DNA from: a virus
Direction: 5' to 3' (one strand)
DNA length: 52,993 nucleotides
IMG/VR virus record: IMGVR_UViG_3300045988_151594
Below are positions 39,209 to 49,077 of the stretch, in pieces (the stretch's first letter is position 1; the number at the start of each line of letters is the position of its first letter). The position numbers and the translations under genes are program-made. Under the pieces are notes generated by a model. It saw nothing but the letters and a program-made list of their open reading frames with translations. It was not told where the DNA came from and did no database searches.

Positions 39209-39805
39209 ATGAAAATATGTAAAGTTTGTGGAAATGAATTTGAAAAACTACACTCAAAAGAAATGTGTAAAAAATGTTATAATAGAGAATGGTATAAACA
39301 AAAGCATAATATAAAAAGAACTAAAAAGGATGGAAACAAAATAATAGAATATGAAGATTGTGCAGAAATGATACTTTATAATAATCAATGCAAAGAAGTA
39401 ACAAGAACAATAATAGATTTGGATGATATAAACAAAGTTAAAGTTTTTAAATGGTGTTTAGATGGCAGAGGATATGTTATAAATAGAACTGTAGGTAAAT
39501 TACATAGATTTATTATGGATTGTCCAGATGATAAAGTTGTGGACCATATTAATCATGATAAGTTAAATAATAGAAAATCCAATTTAAGGATATGTACTAA
39601 ACAACAAAATAACATGAATAAAGGTAAAACATCAACTAAAGCTACTGGAGTTTATTGGGATAAATCTGTAAATAAATGGACAGCTCAAATAACAATAAAT
39701 TACAAACATAAGACTTTAGGCAGATTTAATACAAAAGAAGAAGCAGTAAAGGCTAGACAAGAAGCTGAAATCAGATATTTCGGTGAATATAGAAATCAAG
39801 GCTAG
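39209..39805 (+). CDS. Free-standing HNH endonuclease with a C-terminal AP2 DNA-binding domain
   Basis: 'VVDHINHDKLNNRKSNLRICTKQQNNMNK' (HNH). 'TGVYWDKSVNKWTAQITINYKHKTLGRFNTKEEAVKARQEAEIRYFGEY' (AP2). Confidence 0.85.
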   Translation: MKICKVCGNEFEKLHSKEMCKKCYNREWYKQKHNIKRTKKDGNKIIEYEDCAEMILYNNQCKEVTRTIIDLDDINKVKVFKWCLDGRGYVINRTVGKLHRFIMDCPDDKVVDHINHDKLNNRKSNLRICTKQQNNMNKGKTSTKATGVYWDKSVNKWTAQITINYKHKTLGRFNTKEEAVKARQEAEIRYFGEYRNQG

Positions 39806-39844: not shown

Positions 39845-40117
39845 ATGTTAGATTTAAGTGTTATAAGTAATTATTTAGTAGTTGCAGTAATATTAGTATG
39901 TTGTTGTATTGGATATGTAATAAAAACAAGTTTAGATTTTATACCTAATAAATATATACCATTAATCATGGCCTGCATAGGAGTGGTTTTAAACTACTTT
40001 ATAGCAGGCTATTTTAATGTAAATGTATTACTAGGAGGGATGTTGAGTGGTTTAAGTTCTGTAGGACTTCATCAAGCTTTTAAAAATTTAATTGAAAACA
40101 AAGAAGGTGATAAATAA
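39845..40117 (+). CDS. Holin (multi-TM, phi-LC3-like class)
   Basis: 90 aa with three hydrophobic segments and a charged C-terminus 'ENKEGDK'. Its stop overlaps the endolysin start. Confidence 0.8.
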   Translation: MLDLSVISNYLVVAVILVCCCIGYVIKTSLDFIPNKYIPLIMACIGVVLNYFIAGYFNVNVLLGGMLSGLSSVGLHQAFKNLIENKEGDK

Positions 40118-40992
40118 TGAAGACTAAAAATGGTTTTACATTATTAGAAAATGAAAAAGATGTAAAGGAATGGTTATCTAAGCAAAAAGTAACAAGAAAA
40201 ATAACTAGACTTCAGGTGCATATGATGGACTTACCAAATTATAGTACTTGGGAAAAGACTGATAAAAAAGTATTTTCTGAACCTCATTTTGGAAGAACTC
40301 AATCTTTAGATTCTTATGGAAAAAGTAAATGGGGATGCAGTGATGGTCATGGACATTACATAGCCCAACATTTAAATATTTTTCCTGATGGTAAAATAAC
40401 AACTGGTAGAAATCTTAATTCTACTCCAATAGGAATTAGAGGTTGGAATACAAATGCTATCTGTATAGAAATATATGGATGCTTTAACAAGGGCAAAGAT
40501 AAGATGACTGAAGCACAAAAGAAAGCAGTAATATATCTTTATGGATTACTTTGCAAAAGATTTAACATACCTGTAGATATAAGTCATATAAGACCTCATT
40601 GTTGGTTCACTGCTGGAGGAACTTATTTAGGAAAATATATTCCTTCAAGAAGTGCTAAAAAATGTCCCGGTACTAACTTTTGGGGATATGGATGTTCACC
40701 TGAAGGATTTGCTCACTTCATAAAGGATGTAAAAAACTATGTAGATGGTAAAAAAGCAGAACCTAAGAAGAAAGAACAAACTAAGGCAACAAAATTTGAA
40801 ATAGTAACACTTGATAAACTTAATATAAGAAAAGTAGCAGATTGGGATGCAGATCCAGTTACAACAGTTAAGAAGGGGCAACATCTACAAGTAATAGATA
40901 CAGTAGATGCTAAAAATGGAAGTACTTCTATGTATCGCTTAGAATCAGGTTTATACATAACTGCATCTGATAAATATGTAAAGAAAGTATAA
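40117..40992 (+). CDS. Endolysin: N-acetylmuramoyl-L-alanine amidase (Amidase_2-like) + SH3b-like cell-wall-binding domain
   Basis: 'ICIEIYG', 'HIRPHCWF' and 'KKCPGTNFWG' are amidase_2-like blocks. C-terminal 'LNIRKVADWDADPVTTVKKGQHLQVIDTVDAKNGSTSMYRLESGLYI' is SH3-like. Confidence 0.8.
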   Translation: MKTKNGFTLLENEKDVKEWLSKQKVTRKITRLQVHMMDLPNYSTWEKTDKKVFSEPHFGRTQSLDSYGKSKWGCSDGHGHYIAQHLNIFPDGKITTGRNLNSTPIGIRGWNTNAICIEIYGCFNKGKDKMTEAQKKAVIYLYGLLCKRFNIPVDISHIRPHCWFTAGGTYLGKYIPSRSAKKCPGTNFWGYGCSPEGFAHFIKDVKNYVDGKKAEPKKKEQTKATKFEIVTLDKLNIRKVADWDADPVTTVKKGQHLQVIDTVDAKNGSTSMYRLESGLYITASDKYVKKV

Positions 40993-41034: not shown

Positions 41035-41697
41035 TTATTTATCTAATTTGTACCACATACCAGGTATACATCCATCATATATTTCAGATGTATTATTTGT
41101 TGGTACATGGTATATTTTAACTCCTGTTATCTCTATTCTTTCCGTACTTTTTTCTTTTAAGTACAATGTTATTTTTCTAGTTTCTCCAGCTGATATATTT
41201 TGCTCAACACCATTCCATGGTATACAAGTATTGTTTTTATCATACTCTTTAAAATCTATTTCTAAATAATTTATATCATTTCCTGTATTATTAGTCCATG
41301 TAAATTCAAAACTTGGAGAAATTTCATCATCTAGATAAGTTTTTTCTATACTATCAAGTTGTTTAGCTATATATTTTTCAGCTTCTACTTCATTTCCACT
41401 ATAATTTTCAGGTATTTTTAAATTTACACCATCTTGATAATATTTAGCTTCTTCTTCTATTTTCCAGTCGTGGTTATTTAAAAAATTAATCTCATCTTCT
41501 GTTAATAACTTTCTATATGCTTCTGTTAATTCATTTCCTTCTAATCCTTTTAAAGTGGCAATTCTATCTTTTTCAGTCATATGTTTTTCTTCTTTTATAG
41601 AGCTTTCAGCTTTATTCTTATTTATATTATTACTACAACCTACCATACTTACTGCTAATATACATGATGTTAAAATGCTTATTAATTTTTTATTCAT
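41035..41697 (-). CDS. Secreted lipoprotein (candidate superinfection-exclusion or lysogenic-conversion factor)
   Basis: 'MNKKLISILTSCILAVSMVGC|SNN' is a signal peptide plus lipobox. RBS 'aaggggga'. No family recognised for the mature part. Confidence 0.7.
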   Translation of the reverse strand: MNKKLISILTSCILAVSMVGCSNNINKNKAESSIKEEKHMTEKDRIATLKGLEGNELTEAYRKLLTEDEINFLNNHDWKIEEEAKYYQDGVNLKIPENYSGNEVEAEKYIAKQLDSIEKTYLDDEISPSFEFTWTNNTGNDINYLEIDFKEYDKNNTCIPWNGVEQNISAGETRKITLYLKEKSTERIEITGVKIYHVPTNNTSEIYDGCIPGMWYKLDK

Positions 41698-41761
41698 AAA
41701 TAACATCCCCCTTAATAATTTATATTTTAGAATTCTATTTGATTATACAATTTCCTCTTTG

Positions 41762-42505
41762 TTATTCATATCCATTCTCTCGTGCAAACTTATGAAATTT
41801 ATCATACGATACTTCAAACACTTTTTTCTCATGCGATATTTCAAACACTTTTTTCTCTTTTCTTAGTTTTTTAGATTTTTTATATTTATCCCTTAAAAGT
41901 TCCATAAAATCGTATTTTGAAAATGGAATACCTATAAAATACTTAAATCCTTTATTGTATTTATTCCTCATATGAGCTATTATTGTATTTTCTCCAATTT
42001 GGAAAAATAAATCGACATTTGAAGGGATATGAAGGTTACCAAACTTATAAGCCCATTTCCACTCATATAGTCTTTCATATGGATTTTTAGGATATTTAGT
42101 TATATCTCCTATCGATTTATCCATAACATTAAATACCCAAACTAAATTATTATTTTTACCATAAAACATACTTCTTTTACGAAAATCTTGACATTTTAAT
42201 GGTGATTTTTGAAATTCTATAACTAAATTCCCTACTTTTATATCAGCCCTATGCTTTTCCCCATCTTCAGCTAAAACAACCTCTCTAAATTGTTCAGGAA
42301 ATTGTTCCTGCCAACGTTTATGCCATTCACTCATTTCATACCAATCATCACAATGAACTTTTGTTTTATGAGCAAAATGCCATTGATTTACTAAGCCTTT
42401 CTTCAGTATTAATTTCCCATGACAGCAGGGGCAATAATAGTCATTTCCTTCAATAGCATCATTTATATTAACTCTATTTCGAAAATTATCATGAGCATAA
42501 AACAT
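41762..42505 (-). CDS. CoiA-like (competence protein CoiA family) putative nuclease
   Basis: 'YYCPCCHGKLILKKGLVNQWHFAHK' zinc finger, plus 'GEKHRADIKVGNLVIEFQKSPL' (D...E-x-K core), as in the CoiA family. Confidence 0.65.
   Translation of the reverse strand: MFYAHDNFRNRVNINDAIEGNDYYCPCCHGKLILKKGLVNQWHFAHKTKVHCDDWYEMSEWHKRWQEQFPEQFREVVLAEDGEKHRADIKVGNLVIEFQKSPLKCQDFRKRSMFYGKNNNLVWVFNVMDKSIGDITKYPKNPYERLYEWKWAYKFGNLHIPSNVDLFFQIGENTIIAHMRNKYNKGFKYFIGIPFSKYDFMELLRDKYKKSKKLRKEKKVFEISHEKKVFEVSYDKFHKFARENGYE
41807..41857. repeat. Tandem duplication, 27-nt period, in the 3' end of the CoiA-like gene
   Basis: 'cgatacttcaaacacttttttctc' (41807-41830) and 'cgatatttcaaacacttttttctc' (41834-41857). They encode 'EKKVFEISHEKKVFEVSY'. 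Confidence 0.85.
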
Positions 42506-44241: not shown

Positions 44242-44412
44242 ATGGCAAAAGAAAAACCAACTATAATCAATATAAGCTTCAAAACACAAACACTAGATGA
44301 TAAGATGCTCTTAGATTGGCTAGAAGTCAAATTTAAAGAATATGGGAAATCAAATTATATAAAGAATGTGCTTAGAGAAAAGATGTATAAAGAAATAAAT
44401 AAAGAAGAGTAA
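44242..44412 (+). CDS. Mnt/CopG-like ribbon-helix-helix protein (56 aa), divergent from the leftward block
   Basis: RBS 'gaggtga' then ATG. 'MAKEKPTIINISFKTQTLDDKMLLDWLEVKFKEYGKSNYIKNVLREKMYKEINKEE'. A terminator follows. Confidence 0.5.
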   Translation: MAKEKPTIINISFKTQTLDDKMLLDWLEVKFKEYGKSNYIKNVLREKMYKEINKEE

Positions 44413-44421
44413 ACAAAAGAA

Positions 44422-44455
44422 AAAGCCGAGAACGAATATCTCAGGCTTTTTTATT
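44422..44455. terminator. Intrinsic (bidirectional) terminator
   Basis: 'aagccgaga-acgaata-tctcaggctt' followed by 'ttttatt', with an A-run upstream. Confidence 0.7.
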
Positions 44456-44589
44456 ATGTTAAAATAGAATTTTTTCTATTATATCTAGAGCAATAGCACA
44501 CCCAAACCAAAATATAGCTTCACTCATTATAATTCACCTACTTGCGATTTTGTGTAATCTTATTATTTACAATTTAAGGAGGTTTATGT

Positions 44590-44964
44590 ATGGAAACTTA
44601 TACTATAAGTGAATTTTTACACAAAGATAAATATGATTTAAATGCCATAGATAAATTTATAGGAAATTTAAAGAAGAATAAAAAAGAGTATGCTAGATTA
44701 GTATTTTTATTGGCTATTTCTATTCCAAAGCCTATATTCGCTCAAAATAATGATATGGGATTAGGAGATGTAGCCTATGAAATAATTCACATGGTCCTTG
44801 TATTCGCTAAATATGGATGCCTAGGCAAAGGCATACTATGTATGACAAATGAAATGTTAGCAGGGGCTAATTTAAAACAGGCATTTGGAGAAGGAATACA
44901 ATATTTTGTTTTTTATATTGTATTAAACATTTATCCAAGATTATTTAGTATGGTTAAATTTTAA
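44590..44964 (+). CDS. Small polytopic membrane protein (VirB2/TrbC- or PrgI/VirB3-like architecture)
   Basis: RBS 'aaggagg'. Hydrophilic N-terminus, a hydrophobic segment ending 'PIFAQNN', then two hydrophobic helices. First gene of a 3-gene operon. Confidence 0.5.
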   Translation: METYTISEFLHKDKYDLNAIDKFIGNLKKNKKEYARLVFLLAISIPKPIFAQNNDMGLGDVAYEIIHMVLVFAKYGCLGKGILCMTNEMLAGANLKQAFGEGIQYFVFYIVLNIYPRLFSMVKF

Positions 44965-44976
44965 GGAGGTATTTAT

Positions 44977-45186
44977 ATGGATAAATTAAATGCTTTTTTA
45001 GGCAAATTTACAGTTGAGTGCTTAGAAACTTTAAGTATCGTTTGCTATGATTGGCTAGTAGTAGCCGGATTGATAGCTTTAGTTTTATATATATTCGGTT
45101 GGGAAAAAGGAAAGAAAGTAGGATTAATGTGTCCTGCTATATATATCATAATTAACATATTAAGTAAGGTGTTATGCCATGCTTAA
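44977..45186 (+). CDS. Small two-TM membrane protein
   Basis: RBS 'aaggagg'. 'WLVVAGLIALVLYIFGW' and 'VGLMCPAIYIIINILSKVL'. It overlaps the ATPase start by 8 nt. Confidence 0.6.
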   Translation: MDKLNAFLGKFTVECLETLSIVCYDWLVVAGLIALVLYIFGWEKGKKVGLMCPAIYIIINILSKVLCHA

Positions 45187-47461
45187 TATAATTCCTAGTA
45201 AACCTAAAAGTATGAAATTAAGTGATTATTACGAATATAGAAAATGCGAATATTCAATTATCAGATTAGTTCCTACAAAGAGCAACAAAAATAATAATAC
45301 TGAACAAATAGCATCTCTAATTAATAAAATGTTTAAGCAGTCTAATAAATATATAAATCAAGCTAGTAAAAAGTTAATTATCGTTCAAAAGCCCAAAGTA
45401 TCCTTTTATATTCATATTACAAAAGGAAAGGTCCAATTTTATTTTATAATTCCTAAATCATATCTAAATCAATTTAAAATAAAATTTCAAGAGGTTTGGA
45501 AAAATATAGAGATTGAAGAAGTGGATAATATTCCAATGGATATTAATAGCTGCAGTAAATTTGATTTGCATTATAAATATGATGAGTCATTATCTCTTGC
45601 GGTTGATAAAAGAAATAATGACTTACTCAATAGCAACATGACGATTACATCTATATTGGAAGAAAATGAAATGGTGGGAATATTATATAATTTTATACCG
45701 ACTAGTGAAAAAGAATCTAACTATTTTAGATCTAATACCTATCCAAGAGCAATTCAAAGATACAAAAATGGAGAAAATCTAAAAAAGTCAAAAAATATTA
45801 AAGATTTATCTGTAATAGCATTAAAAAATTTTATCTCACTCATAAACGACCTCTTAAATTGTATTTTAAACGTACCACAAAATAATCAGCTTATACTTAA
45901 TCCTTTACAGTGTGAAATCTCTCATAGCACCAAAAGAAAAGGCGAGAAGGCAATTTGTAAAAATCAGAGTATAATTTTAACCAAATCTAGTGAGAAATCA
46001 AGAGAAATTGAACTTTCTAACGCTTTTTCTAATACTTTCAAGATAATTTCAGATGATAATGAGTTAATCATTAATGAAATTACTAAAAACATTGATATAA
46101 AAAAGACAATCATAAACCATGTGAATATTAATAAGACAACAATTGAAGAAAGCAGTAATTTTATAAGTATGCCGTCTTTAGAGGTTATAAATCAGTTTAA
46201 GATGATAGAACATAATAAGTGCCTAGAGTTGAAAGCCCCTAAGTGTTTAGAAGATGGAGAAATAAGGATTGGAACTGTAAAGAATAAAGAAAATAAACAA
46301 GAGGTATATTACTCCATGGATGAGCAAATGAAAAGACTAGGAAGAGTATTACTTGGAAGTATGGGTAGTGGTAAATCTTATTATATGCAAAATATGGCAA
46401 GTGATATTATAAAAGCTGGTAGAGGATTAGTAGTAATAGATTATATAGATAAATGTCAGCTATCAGATAATATAAAGAAAATAACTTCAAAGGATAAATT
46501 AGTAGAAATTAATTTCAATGATCCTAAGCAAGTTCAATCATTTAACTTCAATGAGTTAATATTTAATGAAGATGATGACATATACTATAAGGTTAATATA
46601 GCTATGCAGAAAGCTGAACAAATGCAATTATTATTAGACAGTATAAATGATGACAATAGTAAACTTACACCCAGAATGCTTAGATATTTTTATGCAGCTG
46701 CTACAGTAGTTTATTATAAGAATGTAAATGCTAGTTTTAAAGACATTATTAATATGTTGAAATATCCAGATAAAAGATTTGAGTTAATAAAGAATGTACC
46801 AGATATTTTAATAGAAGAAATAGAAGATTTAAAAGATCTAGATAAAATAGATAGCAAAGGTAGAGTAGAGAATTATGATAGTAAGATAGATGGAATTCTG
46901 GACCGTGTTAGCTGGTTAAAAACTAATTTATATACAAAACTAGCATTTAATAAAGAAGCTGATAATAATATTAATTTTGTAGAAGCTATGAAGCAGAATA
47001 AAGTAATTCTGATAAAAATACCCGAACAGTATTTTAAAAGCAGAATGATTAGAAATGTAATTGCCACATACTTTTTAAATAAAATTTGGATTAGTAAGCA
47101 AATAGATTGTAGTACACATACAGAATTATTCTTTGATGAGATACATCAATGTTACAACTGCCAACTACTTATGCAAAACATATTGGTAGAATGTAGAAAA
47201 TTTCAATTAACTCCTACTTTAGCTTTGCATTATTTAGACCAATTAACTCCTAAATGTAAAAATAGTGTATTAGCATCTGGGTCTAGTTATTTATTATTGC
47301 AAGGATGTGATGTAAAAGCATTTAAAGAATTATCTACTTACTTCGAGAAAGATGGATATAGCGAAATAGATTTAGCTGAATTAGATAGATATAATGCTTT
47401 ATGCCTAATAAAGAATGAAGAACAAGGATATAGCTCGTTTATATGTAAGCTGCCTAGTTAG
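45179..47461 (+). CDS. 760-aa P-loop NTPase of the VirB4/TraG/HerA/FtsK clade (T4SS-type ATPase-like)
   Basis: Walker A 'LLGSMGSGKSYY' (about 46349-46384). Walker B 'ELFFDEIHQ' (about 47124-47150). 'VECRKFQLTPTLALHYLDQL' block. About 250 aa separate Walker A and B. The roughly 380-aa N-terminal region is unassigned. Confidence 0.65.
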   Translation: MLNIIPSKPKSMKLSDYYEYRKCEYSIIRLVPTKSNKNNNTEQIASLINKMFKQSNKYINQASKKLIIVQKPKVSFYIHITKGKVQFYFIIPKSYLNQFKIKFQEVWKNIEIEEVDNIPMDINSCSKFDLHYKYDESLSLAVDKRNNDLLNSNMTITSILEENEMVGILYNFIPTSEKESNYFRSNTYPRAIQRYKNGENLKKSKNIKDLSVIALKNFISLINDLLNCILNVPQNNQLILNPLQCEISHSTKRKGEKAICKNQSIILTKSSEKSREIELSNAFSNTFKIISDDNELIINEITKNIDIKKTIINHVNINKTTIEESSNFISMPSLEVINQFKMIEHNKCLELKAPKCLEDGEIRIGTVKNKENKQEVYYSMDEQMKRLGRVLLGSMGSGKSYYMQNMASDIIKAGRGLVVIDYIDKCQLSDNIKKITSKDKLVEINFNDPKQVQSFNFNELIFNEDDDIYYKVNIAMQKAEQMQLLLDSINDDNSKLTPRMLRYFYAAATVVYYKNVNASFKDIINMLKYPDKRFELIKNVPDILIEEIEDLKDLDKIDSKGRVENYDSKIDGILDRVSWLKTNLYTKLAFNKEADNNINFVEAMKQNKVILIKIPEQYFKSRMIRNVIATYFLNKIWISKQIDCSTHTELFFDEIHQCYNCQLLMQNILVECRKFQLTPTLALHYLDQLTPKCKNSVLASGSSYLLLQGCDVKAFKELSTYFEKDGYSEIDLAELDRYNALCLIKNEEQGYSSFICKLPS

Positions 47462-47722
47462 GTAGCTTATTTTTATGTAAATTTGTATTAAAAAAGGAGC
47501 ACATGCATAAGCACGCACTCCCCTATGGACACTAACCATATCATAAACCGTGTATTAAATATCTAAACAAGTTTAGAACGTTTCACTTATCAAATACACT
47601 TGATATAGTGTATGCGAAACACTGGTTAAAAATTGCATGTCCTTTCATATTTAACACATATTTAACATTTAATTCCTAACTGCTATAATTATCTGTGAAT
47701 AAAATTGTGGATAAAATATAAT

Positions 47723-47955
47723 AGCTGACTTTTCAGCTGACATTTTAAATATATTCATGGTTGTGTTGTTGTAGATAGCTTTATTTGATAAGTATAGTCA
47801 ATCACACGTACAGTGTGCCAAAGAGCATTGTAAACTTTGGAATTGAATGGCAAGTGTAAGTATTTTCAGTACTTACACTTGTAACTAATGGTAATTTTTA
47901 CTATATTTTAGACTGTCAATACACTGACAACTGACAATCAAACTGACAACTGACA
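47723..47955. other. Candidate attP region with CTGACA-type arm repeats
   Basis: 'agctgac' at 47723 and 47735. 'tgtcag'-type inverted copy at 47911-47920. 'actgacaactgaca' at 47923 and 47942, abutting the int stop codon. Confidence 0.45.
47851..47881. repeat. Perfect 12-bp-stem hairpin / inverted repeat inside the candidate attP
   Basis: 'caagtgtaagta-ttttcag-tacttacacttg' read directly. Confidence 0.85.
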
Positions 47956-49077
47956 TTACTTTTTAAATAGCATATCTTCCAAATTATCACTTGCTTTTTT
48001 ATCCATTTCATCAAGTGTATGAGTGTATATATTTAATGTAGTCCTTATATCTGAATGCCCTAACCTAGTTGATACTGTCTTTATATCTGTGCCAGCTGCA
48101 ATTGATAGAGTAGCAGATGAATGCCTTAAATCATACATTCTAATCCTTCTTAAATCGTATCTATCACAAAATCTAACAAATTGGTGGAATAATGTATTCA
48201 TCTTCCACATTTCCAATCTCGTATTTAGGCATACTAGATTATATTGATTAAATAGAACACCATCATTTATTAGTCTGTTTTGTCTTTCCTTCTCTTTTAT
48301 CAATTTTTCAATCAAATAATTAGGTACAGTTATTATTCTTTTAGAATTTTCTGTTTTAGGATCTTTAAAATAAGAATTACCTTCAATCTCATAAATACTT
48401 TTATTAACAAAAATAGTATTCTTTTCAAAATTGACATCGTCCCAGCTTAAAGCCATAGCTTCACCTTTTCTAAGTCCAGCAAGTAACATTAATAATAAAG
48501 GTAGTTCTAATGCCTTATTTTCTACACATTTAATAGCTTTTAAGGCTTCTTCTTTGGTCCAGCTGGTGGCCTTAACCTTAATATTTTTTTTAGGAACTTT
48601 TATAAAATCTGTTATATTTTCACTTGTTTCTCTAAAACGATAAGCATCTCTTAAAACTACTCTAAGGGAAGCATATCTAGCTTCTGCACTACTTCCACCA
48701 TGTTCTTTATATATTTTATTTGCCCACTGTTGCAATTGGTATACAGTTACTTCACTTAATTTAGTATCTTTAAAAAAGGGCTCTATTGATGCTTTTATGA
48801 TGCTTCTTCTCTTTTTTATAGTATATGGAGATAAATTATTAGTATTATCTTCTAAAAATTTATAACATCTATCTACTAATGTTATATCTTTACTTATTAC
48901 AAACTTGTTTTTATTAATAGAACTTTTTAGATCAATAAGATGTTTATCTGCTTCCTTTTTAGAATCATATTTGCCAACACTTTTTTGTTTTAGTTTCCCT
49001 TTTTCATCATAGTATTCAACTATAACATTATAATTATTGCCTCTCTTACGAATAAATGTGCTTTTTATATTATCCAA
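47956..49077 (-). CDS. int: Tyrosine integrase
   Basis: C-terminal catalytic region 'MYDLRHSSATLSIAAGTDIKTVSTRLGHSDIRTTLNIYTH' (R...HxxR...Y) and an N-terminal SAM-like/arm-binding region. Confidence 0.9.
   Translation of the reverse strand: MDNIKSTFIRKRGNNYNVIVEYYDEKGKLKQKSVGKYDSKKEADKHLIDLKSSINKNKFVISKDITLVDRCYKFLEDNTNNLSPYTIKKRRSIIKASIEPFFKDTKLSEVTVYQLQQWANKIYKEHGGSSAEARYASLRVVLRDAYRFRETSENITDFIKVPKKNIKVKATSWTKEEALKAIKCVENKALELPLLLMLLAGLRKGEAMALSWDDVNFEKNTIFVNKSIYEIEGNSYFKDPKTENSKRIITVPNYLIEKLIKEKERQNRLINDGVLFNQYNLVCLNTRLEMWKMNTLFHQFVRFCDRYDLRRIRMYDLRHSSATLSIAAGTDIKTVSTRLGHSDIRTTLNIYTHTLDEMDKKASDNLEDMLFKK

Follow-up and report, generated by a model that had tools for sequence, protein, structure and literature searches.

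A predicted VirB4-like ATPase and its small-gene partners at the end of a temperate Clostridium-type phage genome

What would a tailed phage do with a few genes that resemble part of a type IV secretion system (T4SS)? The question is raised by three genes at positions 44590-47461 of the IMG/VR virus record IMGVR_UViG_3300045988_151594, a stretch of 52,993 nucleotides (nt) that we analysed over its whole length and refer to as the window. Its carrier is a temperate Clostridium-type phage. A first-pass annotation, made without database searches, had described the three genes as an orphan T4SS-like cassette that encodes a pilin-like protein (ORF1), a small hairpin protein (ORF2) and a translocase-type ATPase (ORF3). 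We find that the cassette is a homologue of genes 31/31.1/31.2/32 of phage SPP1, a known but uncharacterised family whose ATPase is PHROG 5156. The label "orphan" holds in that no T4SS partners accompany the genes; it does not hold in the sense of unique, since the cassette is the SPP1 gp31.1/gp31.2/gp32 module together with a fourth gene.

As first described, the three open reading frames (ORFs) are co-directional and tightly packed: ORF1 at 44590-44964 (124 amino acids, aa), ORF2 at 44977-45186 (69 aa) and ORF3 at 45179-47461 (760 aa), all on the + strand, with 8 nt shared by ORF2 and ORF3 (45179-45186). The AAGGAGG ribosome-binding site that had been claimed for each of them is present 7 nt before the ATG of ORF1 (44576-44582) and 7 nt before that of ORF2 (44963-44969, across the stop codon of ORF1), but ORF3 is preceded by AAGGTG (45166-45171) instead. 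A small gene lies upstream (44242-44412, + strand, 56 aa) and is separated from ORF1 by the terminator that the annotation had placed there, found as an intrinsic-terminator-like hairpin with a T-run (about 44424-44453, + strand; in the scan it was called on the - strand). The promoter scan detected no sigma-70-like promoter in the 134-nt spacer ahead of ORF1. A second terminator-like hairpin (47445-47470, + strand) overlaps the stop codon of ORF3. Family searches of the window found no relaxase, VirB6, VirB8 or VirD4, in line with the earlier statement that the element holds no other conjugation gene. No protein in the entire window has at least four transmembrane (TM) segments, as expected for a VirB6-like protein, and a VirB6 elsewhere in the phage genome was ruled out because the window is devoid of any polytopic membrane protein.

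The ATPase and its two domains

ORF3 matches PHROG 5156 ("unknown function") over its full length (residues 6-758, 2.1e-80). In an exhaustive search its family comprised 590 clusters at 50% identity, nearly all of them 720-930 aa long and aligned end to end, which means that the N-terminal half belongs to the family as well. The motifs noticed at first reading are all in place: Walker A, GSMGSGKS, occupies residues 393-400 (nt 46355-46378); Walker B, LFFDEIH, follows 257 aa later at residues 650-656 (nt 47126-47146); ECRKFQL and LHYLDQL start at residues 671 and 683. Residues G398, K399, D653, E654, R533 and R576 are invariant among 61 diverse homologues, and these catalytic residues indicate that ORF3 is a predicted active ATPase.

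To place the protein, we compared an AlphaFold2 model built on the family alignment (predicted local distance difference test, pLDDT, 90.8; predicted template modelling score, pTM, 0.76) with structures in the PDB. Full-length TrwK/VirB4 of the R388 T4SS ranks first (E 2e-13 over about 870 aligned columns), ahead of HerA, TrwB and the VirB4 C-terminal domain (4ag5, TMt 0.66); entries 8rtd and 7o42 are VirB4 matches. The model consists of a VirB4-like N-terminal domain (NTD; residues 1-350, nt 45179-46228, + strand) and a C-terminal RecA-like ATPase domain (nt 46229-47461, + strand) with an all-alpha insertion between Walker A and Walker B. Since the ATPase core alone might drive the ranking of the whole protein, residues 1-350 were modelled separately (pLDDT 93.7, pTM 0.89). 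With this NTD-only model the first eight PDB matches are, without exception, TrwK/VirB4 of R388 (E between 3.4e-4 and 1.4e-2, probability reaching 0.99), and the matches past these eight are unrelated (E>0.02). The N-terminal half, in which the first-pass annotation had recognised no motif, is indeed without a Pfam match, but its model matches the VirB4-type NTD.

ORF3 contains no TM segment; its highest 19-aa hydropathy value, 1.56, falls in an amphipathic helix. On the strength of the NTD-only matches, the full-length VirB4 matches and the lack of a TM segment, ORF3 is predicted to be a divergent, soluble, two-domain VirB4-like ATPase and not a VirD4-type coupling protein, though it stands outside Pfam-level membership. 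The earlier assignment to the translocase-type ATPases of the VirB4/VirD4/HerA superfamily is thus upheld by the fold matches and becomes more precise, with both domains modelled as VirB4-like. Searches with the ORF3 sequence gave no match in the PDB or NCBIfam, and a profile search of the PDB gave matches at P-loop level only. Two distant family members, P0245 and P0216 (in loci L034 and L036), carry the precomputed Pfam match PF26449 (DUF8128), and the ATPase family may already have a domain entry of this DUF type.

The membrane proteins and the upstream gene

Hydropathy and alignments divide ORF1 into a leader of 51 aa, which carries a conserved T-I-S-E-F-type motif, and a 73-aa part with two hydrophobic helices. 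The hydrophobic stretch of the leader ends in PIFA, directly followed by QNN, and a signal peptidase I site is predicted between A51 and Q52 (nt 44742/44743). The alanine at position -1 is kept in nearly all of about 120 close homologues that we read, and in distant ones as well. Searching with ORF1 returned close relatives only, none of them Pfam-labelled. Proteins whose genes hold the same position beside ATPase homologues in other relatives do score against pilin models. WP_012301007 of plasmid pCLK reaches 28.5 bits against Pfam TrbC (gathering cut-off 27.9), gp50 of phage 031MP004 scores 26.7 bits against TrbC and 24.4 bits against T4SS_pilin, and gp97 of CP-51 scores 19.3 bits against T4SS_pilin; the SPP1-type counterparts score weakly against the TrbC/T4SS_pilin models. 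When profiles were compared, the clostridial ORF1 family matched the TrbC/T4SS_pilin-positive proteins with hhalign probabilities of 85-89% (E 3-6e-6, 79-90 columns), versus 40-50% for unrelated TM-hairpin controls. We therefore regard ORF1, with moderate confidence, as prepilin-like; for its TrbC/VirB2 link the grounds are profile comparison and a common gene position. The pilin-type layout seen at first reading, with its two helices behind the PIFA segment, agrees with this assignment.

ORF2 has the two strong TM segments of the hairpin that had been proposed (residues 21-39 and 48-66), joined by the short basic loop GWEKGKK. In most relatives a homologous hairpin gene abuts or overlaps the ATPase gene. 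By place and shape ORF2 may be assigned to VirB3: it would occupy the virB3 position, and its outline is VirB3-like. In one relative (L031, 5110-5965) the ORF2 and ORF3 homologues are split by a free-standing gene for a 197-aa homing endonuclease of the HNH type and by a small ORF in reverse orientation, at the equivalent of the junction near 45186 in the window, so translational coupling appears dispensable in that phage.

The 56-aa gene upstream was not part of the cassette as first described. Chains of pairwise similarity tie its product to same-position genes of C. botulinum and C. tetani plasmids, Terrisporobacter phage TPDSL_ph2, locus L011 and the B. cereus plasmid pBC07-3, and the same chains join it to SPP1 gp31 and to 031MP004 gp49, which is annotated "DNA binding protein". 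None of the 17 IMG/VR relatives whose sequence covers this position lacks the gene, and its ratios of non-synonymous to synonymous substitution (dN/dS) are 0.07-0.15. Judged by sequence comparison, it is the predicted fourth conserved member of the module and the counterpart of SPP1 gp31. A strand-helix-helix pattern suggests a putative ribbon-helix-helix (RHH) DNA-binding protein; the family has no Pfam match and, in the profile search, no significant PDB match.

Distribution, selection and genomic setting

By tblastn, the ATPase occurs in 96 phage records, of which 91 are Bacillus and the rest Clostridium, Terrisporobacter, Lysinibacillus and Alicyclobacillus, and in 44 plasmid records. We inspected about 25 related genomic contexts, and in none of them does VirB6, VirB8, VirD4 or a relaxase stand beside the module. 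Among phages these contexts include SPP1 genes 31-32, the virulent phages CP-51, FADO and 031MP004, TPDSL_ph2, metagenomic phages and one integrated prophage; the module is also carried by the phage-plasmids phiCp-D, pCQ92 and C. botulinum p1_CFSAN034202 and by other plasmids, namely B. cereus pBC07-3 and one C. tetani plasmid. Matches on C. perfringens plasmids of about 55 kb were considered as conjugative pCP13, an identification that we rejected because they are phage-plasmids. One or more small genes followed by an overlapping ATPase gene are common to SPP1, phiCp-D, TPDSL_ph2, the clostridial and B. cereus plasmids, FADO, CP-51 and the metagenomic phages. Gene order is kept in 17 of the 17 IMG/VR loci that span the upstream genes, with ORF2 of L023 below detection at the threshold used.

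Against relatives of 63-98% identity, all four genes have dN/dS values of 0.06-0.55. Purifying selection and broad conservation argue that the cassette is maintained and not decaying, and they refute the suggestion of a decaying fragment of an integrative and conjugative element (ICE). The trio recurs as a unit, with no conjugation genes beside it in the contexts inspected, in phages, phage-plasmids and plasmids, as the first-pass annotation had proposed to check, and the orphan state is the norm. Its description as prophage cargo, or moron, fits the temperate relatives but not the virulent phages, which carry the module too, in early operons. The module is also mosaic: L028 and L032 keep ORF1 and ORF2 at 84-100% identity and ORF3 at 63%, and L023 keeps ORF3 at 94% with ORF1 at 41% and ORF2 undetectable. 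This independent divergence implies that recombination has reshuffled the small genes and the ATPase gene.

The neighbours of the module vary. An actin-like ALP gene and a small-protein gene flank it in CP-51 (L006 2575-8550), FADO (L008 2113-8317), L034 and L038, a Replic_Relax (PF13814) gene follows it in CP-51 and FADO, and ALP/ParM genes are also found near it in phiCp-D and pCQ92. These neighbours suggest a connection with DNA segregation or replication of the plasmid type. The copy on pCLK (L003, L041; 96.8-171 kb) consists of a TrbC/VirB2-annotated protein and the ATPase. An N6-methylase borders it on one side and a Septu-like AAA_21/AAA_15 plus HNH pair on the other, with IS200 and type I-B cas genes farther on, a neighbourhood that looks like a defence island. 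The pCLK/pCLJ plasmids are experimentally conjugative, and the region with the secretion components of pCLK is given without coordinates (PMC5814558). We found no annotated type IV secretion gene within 12 kb on either side of the copy or in the next 49 kb (about 75 kb inspected), and with defence-like neighbours besides, we rejected, for the span inspected, a location inside a T4SS operon. In phage G, gp155 is annotated as TraC-like and gp156 as a TraD-like T4SS homologue.

The window itself is a low-GC (about 29%) temperate phage with a contractile tail: its tail sheath gene matches phrog_1480 (1.5e-119), and a portal gene, holin and endolysin genes and an anti-repressor gene are also present. 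An HNH endonuclease gene (39209-39805, + strand; phrog_99 at 8e-40) stands just upstream of the holin gene (39845-40117), which is followed by the endolysin gene (40117-40992). Between the lysis genes and the cassette lies a gene for a CoiA-like protein (41762-42505, - strand; Pfam CoiA_N at 3e-14 plus a CoiA nuclease-like domain), adjoined by a 223-aa ORF (41035-41706) with no family match.

Downstream of ORF3, a non-coding region (47462-47955) in which the attP site is expected extends to an ORF taken as the integrase gene (47956-49077, - strand), both from the earlier call and from its position, equal to that of the annotated integrase of TPDSL_ph2. The lysis-module-integrase layout of TPDSL_ph2 is identical to that of the window. 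The non-coding region holds several short tandem and inverted repeats, and ACTGACAACTGACA is present twice at 47923-47955, beside the putative integrase gene. In the integrated relative L039 the cassette forms the last prophage genes before host genes, and the similarity of the window to this prophage/host junction fades at about 47610-47650, where we estimate the predicted crossover to lie. These data lend indirect support to the attP that had been placed on this side of the cassette.

Possible roles and relation to known systems

VirB4, the signature ATPase common to all type IV secretion systems, contacts VirB3 via its NTD and is implicated in dislocating pilin from the membrane. With these properties as a guide, we think it fairly probable that the cassette is a four-gene Firmicutes phage accessory module in which a VirB4-like motor, a VirB3-like hairpin and pilin-like ORF1 form a dispensable envelope device. 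ORF3 would be the soluble, presumably hexameric VirB4-type ATPase, and the co-translated ORF2 hairpin would tether it to the cytoplasmic membrane as VirB3 does for VirB4. ORF1 would be processed by signal peptidase into a VirB2/TrbC-like two-helix membrane protein, on which ORF3 could spend ATP in extraction or polymerisation, as VirB4 does with pilin, and the 56-aa protein would probably bind DNA, either as a regulator or as an adaptor. Taken together, these parts would make a self-standing device, dispensable and kept by phages for a conditional advantage. Since VirB6, VirB8, VirD4, a relaxase and a dedicated hydrolase are lacking, it would not be a conjugation system. The leading candidates for its role are exclusion of incoming DNA, which fits the genomic slot, dispensability and early expression, and handling of the phage's DNA at the membrane, with which a putative partner that binds DNA and the nearby ALP/ParM and Replic_Relax genes agree.

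Several observations weigh against this account. The match of the NTD to VirB4 is modest (template modelling score, TM-score, 0.32-0.38; best E 3.4e-4). The first-pass annotation had proposed searching ORF3 for the VirB4 families of Pfam, and that search returned noise only, with no CagE_TrbE_VirB (PF03135) or AAA_10 (PF12846); neither family appears among the 25 of 29 Pfam families listed for the 61 relatives, 21 of which do match TrwB_AAD_bind, below threshold. ORF1 itself has no Pfam match, and generic TM-hairpin similarity alone reaches an hhalign probability of 40-50%. At E<=1, ORF2 and four homologues gave no VirB3 (PF05101) or PrgI-type Pfam match, the link of ORF2 to SPP1 gp31.2 is weak (66% probability), and pCLK and 031MP004 are without the hairpin gene. 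Pilin assembly in Gram-positive systems is modelled on a VirB6 pentamer, yet the window has no VirB6. Finally, the biological role proposed here is conjecture; we found no functional studies of phage VirB4-like or gp32 homologues, and remarks on them are at the level of annotation (PMC6316719, PMC8878798, bioRxiv 2024.12.16.628780).

Of the roles considered, superinfection exclusion or defence seems possible, although we would not bet on it; a membrane complex, expressed from the prophage or at an early stage of lytic infection, would block or drive out DNA that arrives with a phage or by conjugation. In temperate relatives the module lies between the lysis and integrase genes, at the very end of the prophage, which is the place of conversion and exclusion genes, and early expression in virulent SPP1, where the module is non-essential, fits known exclusion genes too. 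Wbeta-like phages, in which the module is variably present downstream of the endolysin gene, have in that same slot a lipoprotein, or a membrane protein and a TrwB-like ATPase, and J5a is without the ATPase (PMC8878798). The methylase, the Septu-like AAA_21 and HNH pair and the type I-B cas genes around the pCLK copy point the same way, although this argument from neighbourhood depends on a single plasmid. The check for a defence system in PADLOC-DB v2 turned out negative, giving only weak and generic matches to the ATPase core (mad8 at 6e-5 and 20.7 bits, HerA at 0.0095) and none to the small proteins; moreover, the exclusion proteins known so far are small and ATP-independent, and the promoter scan gives no sign of expression in lysogens. 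We consider it unlikely that the module instead anchors, positions or translocates the phage's own DNA at the membrane together with actin-like segregation proteins. RHH accessory proteins stimulate coupling ATPases in conjugation, as TrwA does with TrwB, and a conserved putative DNA-binding gene does stand ahead of the module. ALP/ParM genes adjoin the module in the six relatives named above, a Replic_Relax protein comes after it in two of these, and the module is frequent in phage-plasmids. The window, however, carries neither an ALP nor a Replic_Relax gene, the putative fold of the 56-aa protein is read from a sequence pattern, and a terminator stands between its gene and the trio; SPP1 replicates without genes 31.2 and 32, and the pilin-like protein would be left without a task.

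Other alternatives concern what the parts are. Were ORF3 a VirD4/TrwB-type coupling protein or a HerA/FtsK-type translocase, the small proteins would be mere anchors. Several databases label homologues as coupling protein or TrwB-like, an impression shared by the TrwB_AAD_bind matches, by the superposition of the C-terminal domain on TrwB (TMt about 0.6) and on HerA, and by the all-alpha insertion between the Walker motifs. Yet ORF3 is without an N-terminal TM anchor, its best whole-protein matches are full-length VirB4, the 350-aa NTD matches VirB4 only, and the order pilin, hairpin, ATPase mirrors virB2-virB3-virB4, which makes this assignment quite improbable in our view. Least probable of all is a conjugation-like core, either a domesticated ICE fragment or a plug-in to a resident T4SS (VirB6, VirD4) that moves or blocks DNA. 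The parts are T4SS-like, phage G has its second, TraD-like ATPase beside the homologue, and pCLK/pCLJ, which carry a copy, are conjugative (PMC5814558). However, relaxase, VirD4, VirB6 and VirB8 are absent from the window and the inspected contexts alike, the inspected surroundings of the pCLK copy yielded no annotated secretion gene, and genes under purifying selection that are conserved in virulent phages are not decaying. A bolder form of the envelope-device account is a self-sufficient minimal VirB2/VirB3/VirB4 nanomachine of Bacillota tailed phages, composed of pilin-like subunit, membrane adaptor, motor and DNA-binding partner and serving, in infected or lysogenic cells, as a short envelope conduit or plug that expels or blocks DNA, or for virion-free export of DNA or protein; we hold this to be a speculative proposal with little chance of being right as it stands. 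Such a machine might co-opt VirB6 of a resident conjugative element, and, if real, would add a functional class to the machines derived from T4SSs and link phages and conjugation directly at the molecular level.

The preferred reading, a VirB4-like envelope device, describes a distinct phage-borne VirB4-like clade in SPP1, CP-51, phage G, Wbeta-like phages, clostridial phage-plasmids and toxin plasmids, which travels with pilin-like and VirB3-like partners only and is under selection even in virulent phages. What we add to the earlier descriptions is the VirB4 assignment of the NTD, the recognition of propilin features in the gp31.1-like proteins and of their link to TrbC, a conserved fourth gene, and the generality of both the orphan state and purifying selection. 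The module may hold a new mechanism of exclusion or DNA handling in gut and pathogenic clostridia. Given the claim that Gram-positive T4SSs depend on VirB2-like pilins, it also tests how little of a T4SS suffices. Solving its role would explain the SPP1 module flagged in 2018, and SPP1 with B. subtilis makes that role directly testable.

Compared with known systems, ORF3 shares the RecA-like hexameric-ATPase fold of its C-terminal half with TrwB/VirD4 and HerA/FtsK, but lacks the TM anchor of VirD4 as well as HAS-barrel and FtsK-gamma features, and differs also in its VirB4-like NTD. ORF1 resembles the VirB2-like pilins of Gram-positive bacteria (TrbC PF04956, T4SS_pilin PF18895; PrgF of pCF10) in its two TM helices and short charged loop. 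It differs in falling below Pfam detection, and PrgF is modelled on a VirB6 pentamer, for which there is no VirB6 here. According to a preprint of December 2025, Gram-positive T4SSs need such pilins, modelled on this pentamer (bioRxiv 10.64898/2025.12.18.695078). The R388 proteins VirB4/TrwK, VirB3/TrwM and VirB2/TrwL (PDB 7o42, 8rtd) offer the closest structural parallel for the ATPase: NTD and C-terminal folds match, the Walker motifs are conserved, and a soluble ATPase gene comes right after a TM-hairpin gene and a propilin-like gene. In contrast to that system, the cassette is phage-borne, has no Pfam-level membership and is without VirB1, B5, B6, B7-B11, VirD4 and relaxase.

SPP1 provides the counterpart for the module as a whole. 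Gene order and sizes are the same: a small soluble protein, a membrane protein of about 120 aa with three segments, a two-TM protein of about 70-105 aa, and an overlapping gene for an ATPase of about 760-840 aa without TM segments. Gene 32 aligns with ORF3 by tblastn at 99% coverage (E 5e-11) with an identity of only about 20%, and gp31.1 is 30% identical to ORF1 over 80 aa, with the leader motif and cleavage site in common; the SPP1 links of ORF2 and the 56-aa gene are weak and come from similarity chains and architecture. Godinho et al. (2018, PMC6316719) described a viable SPP1 inversion that disrupts gene 31.2 and strips gene 32 of its promoter, both genes being dispensable. The same study reported gp31.1 and gp31.2 as membrane proteins, tied the C-terminus of gp32 by HHpred to TrwB, VirB4 and FtsK, and proposed gp31.1/31.2/32 as a trans-membrane translocon (PMC6316719). 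The two settings differ in that SPP1 is virulent and expresses the module early, whereas here the module ends the genome of a temperate myovirus, beside the expected attP site and the putative integrase gene.

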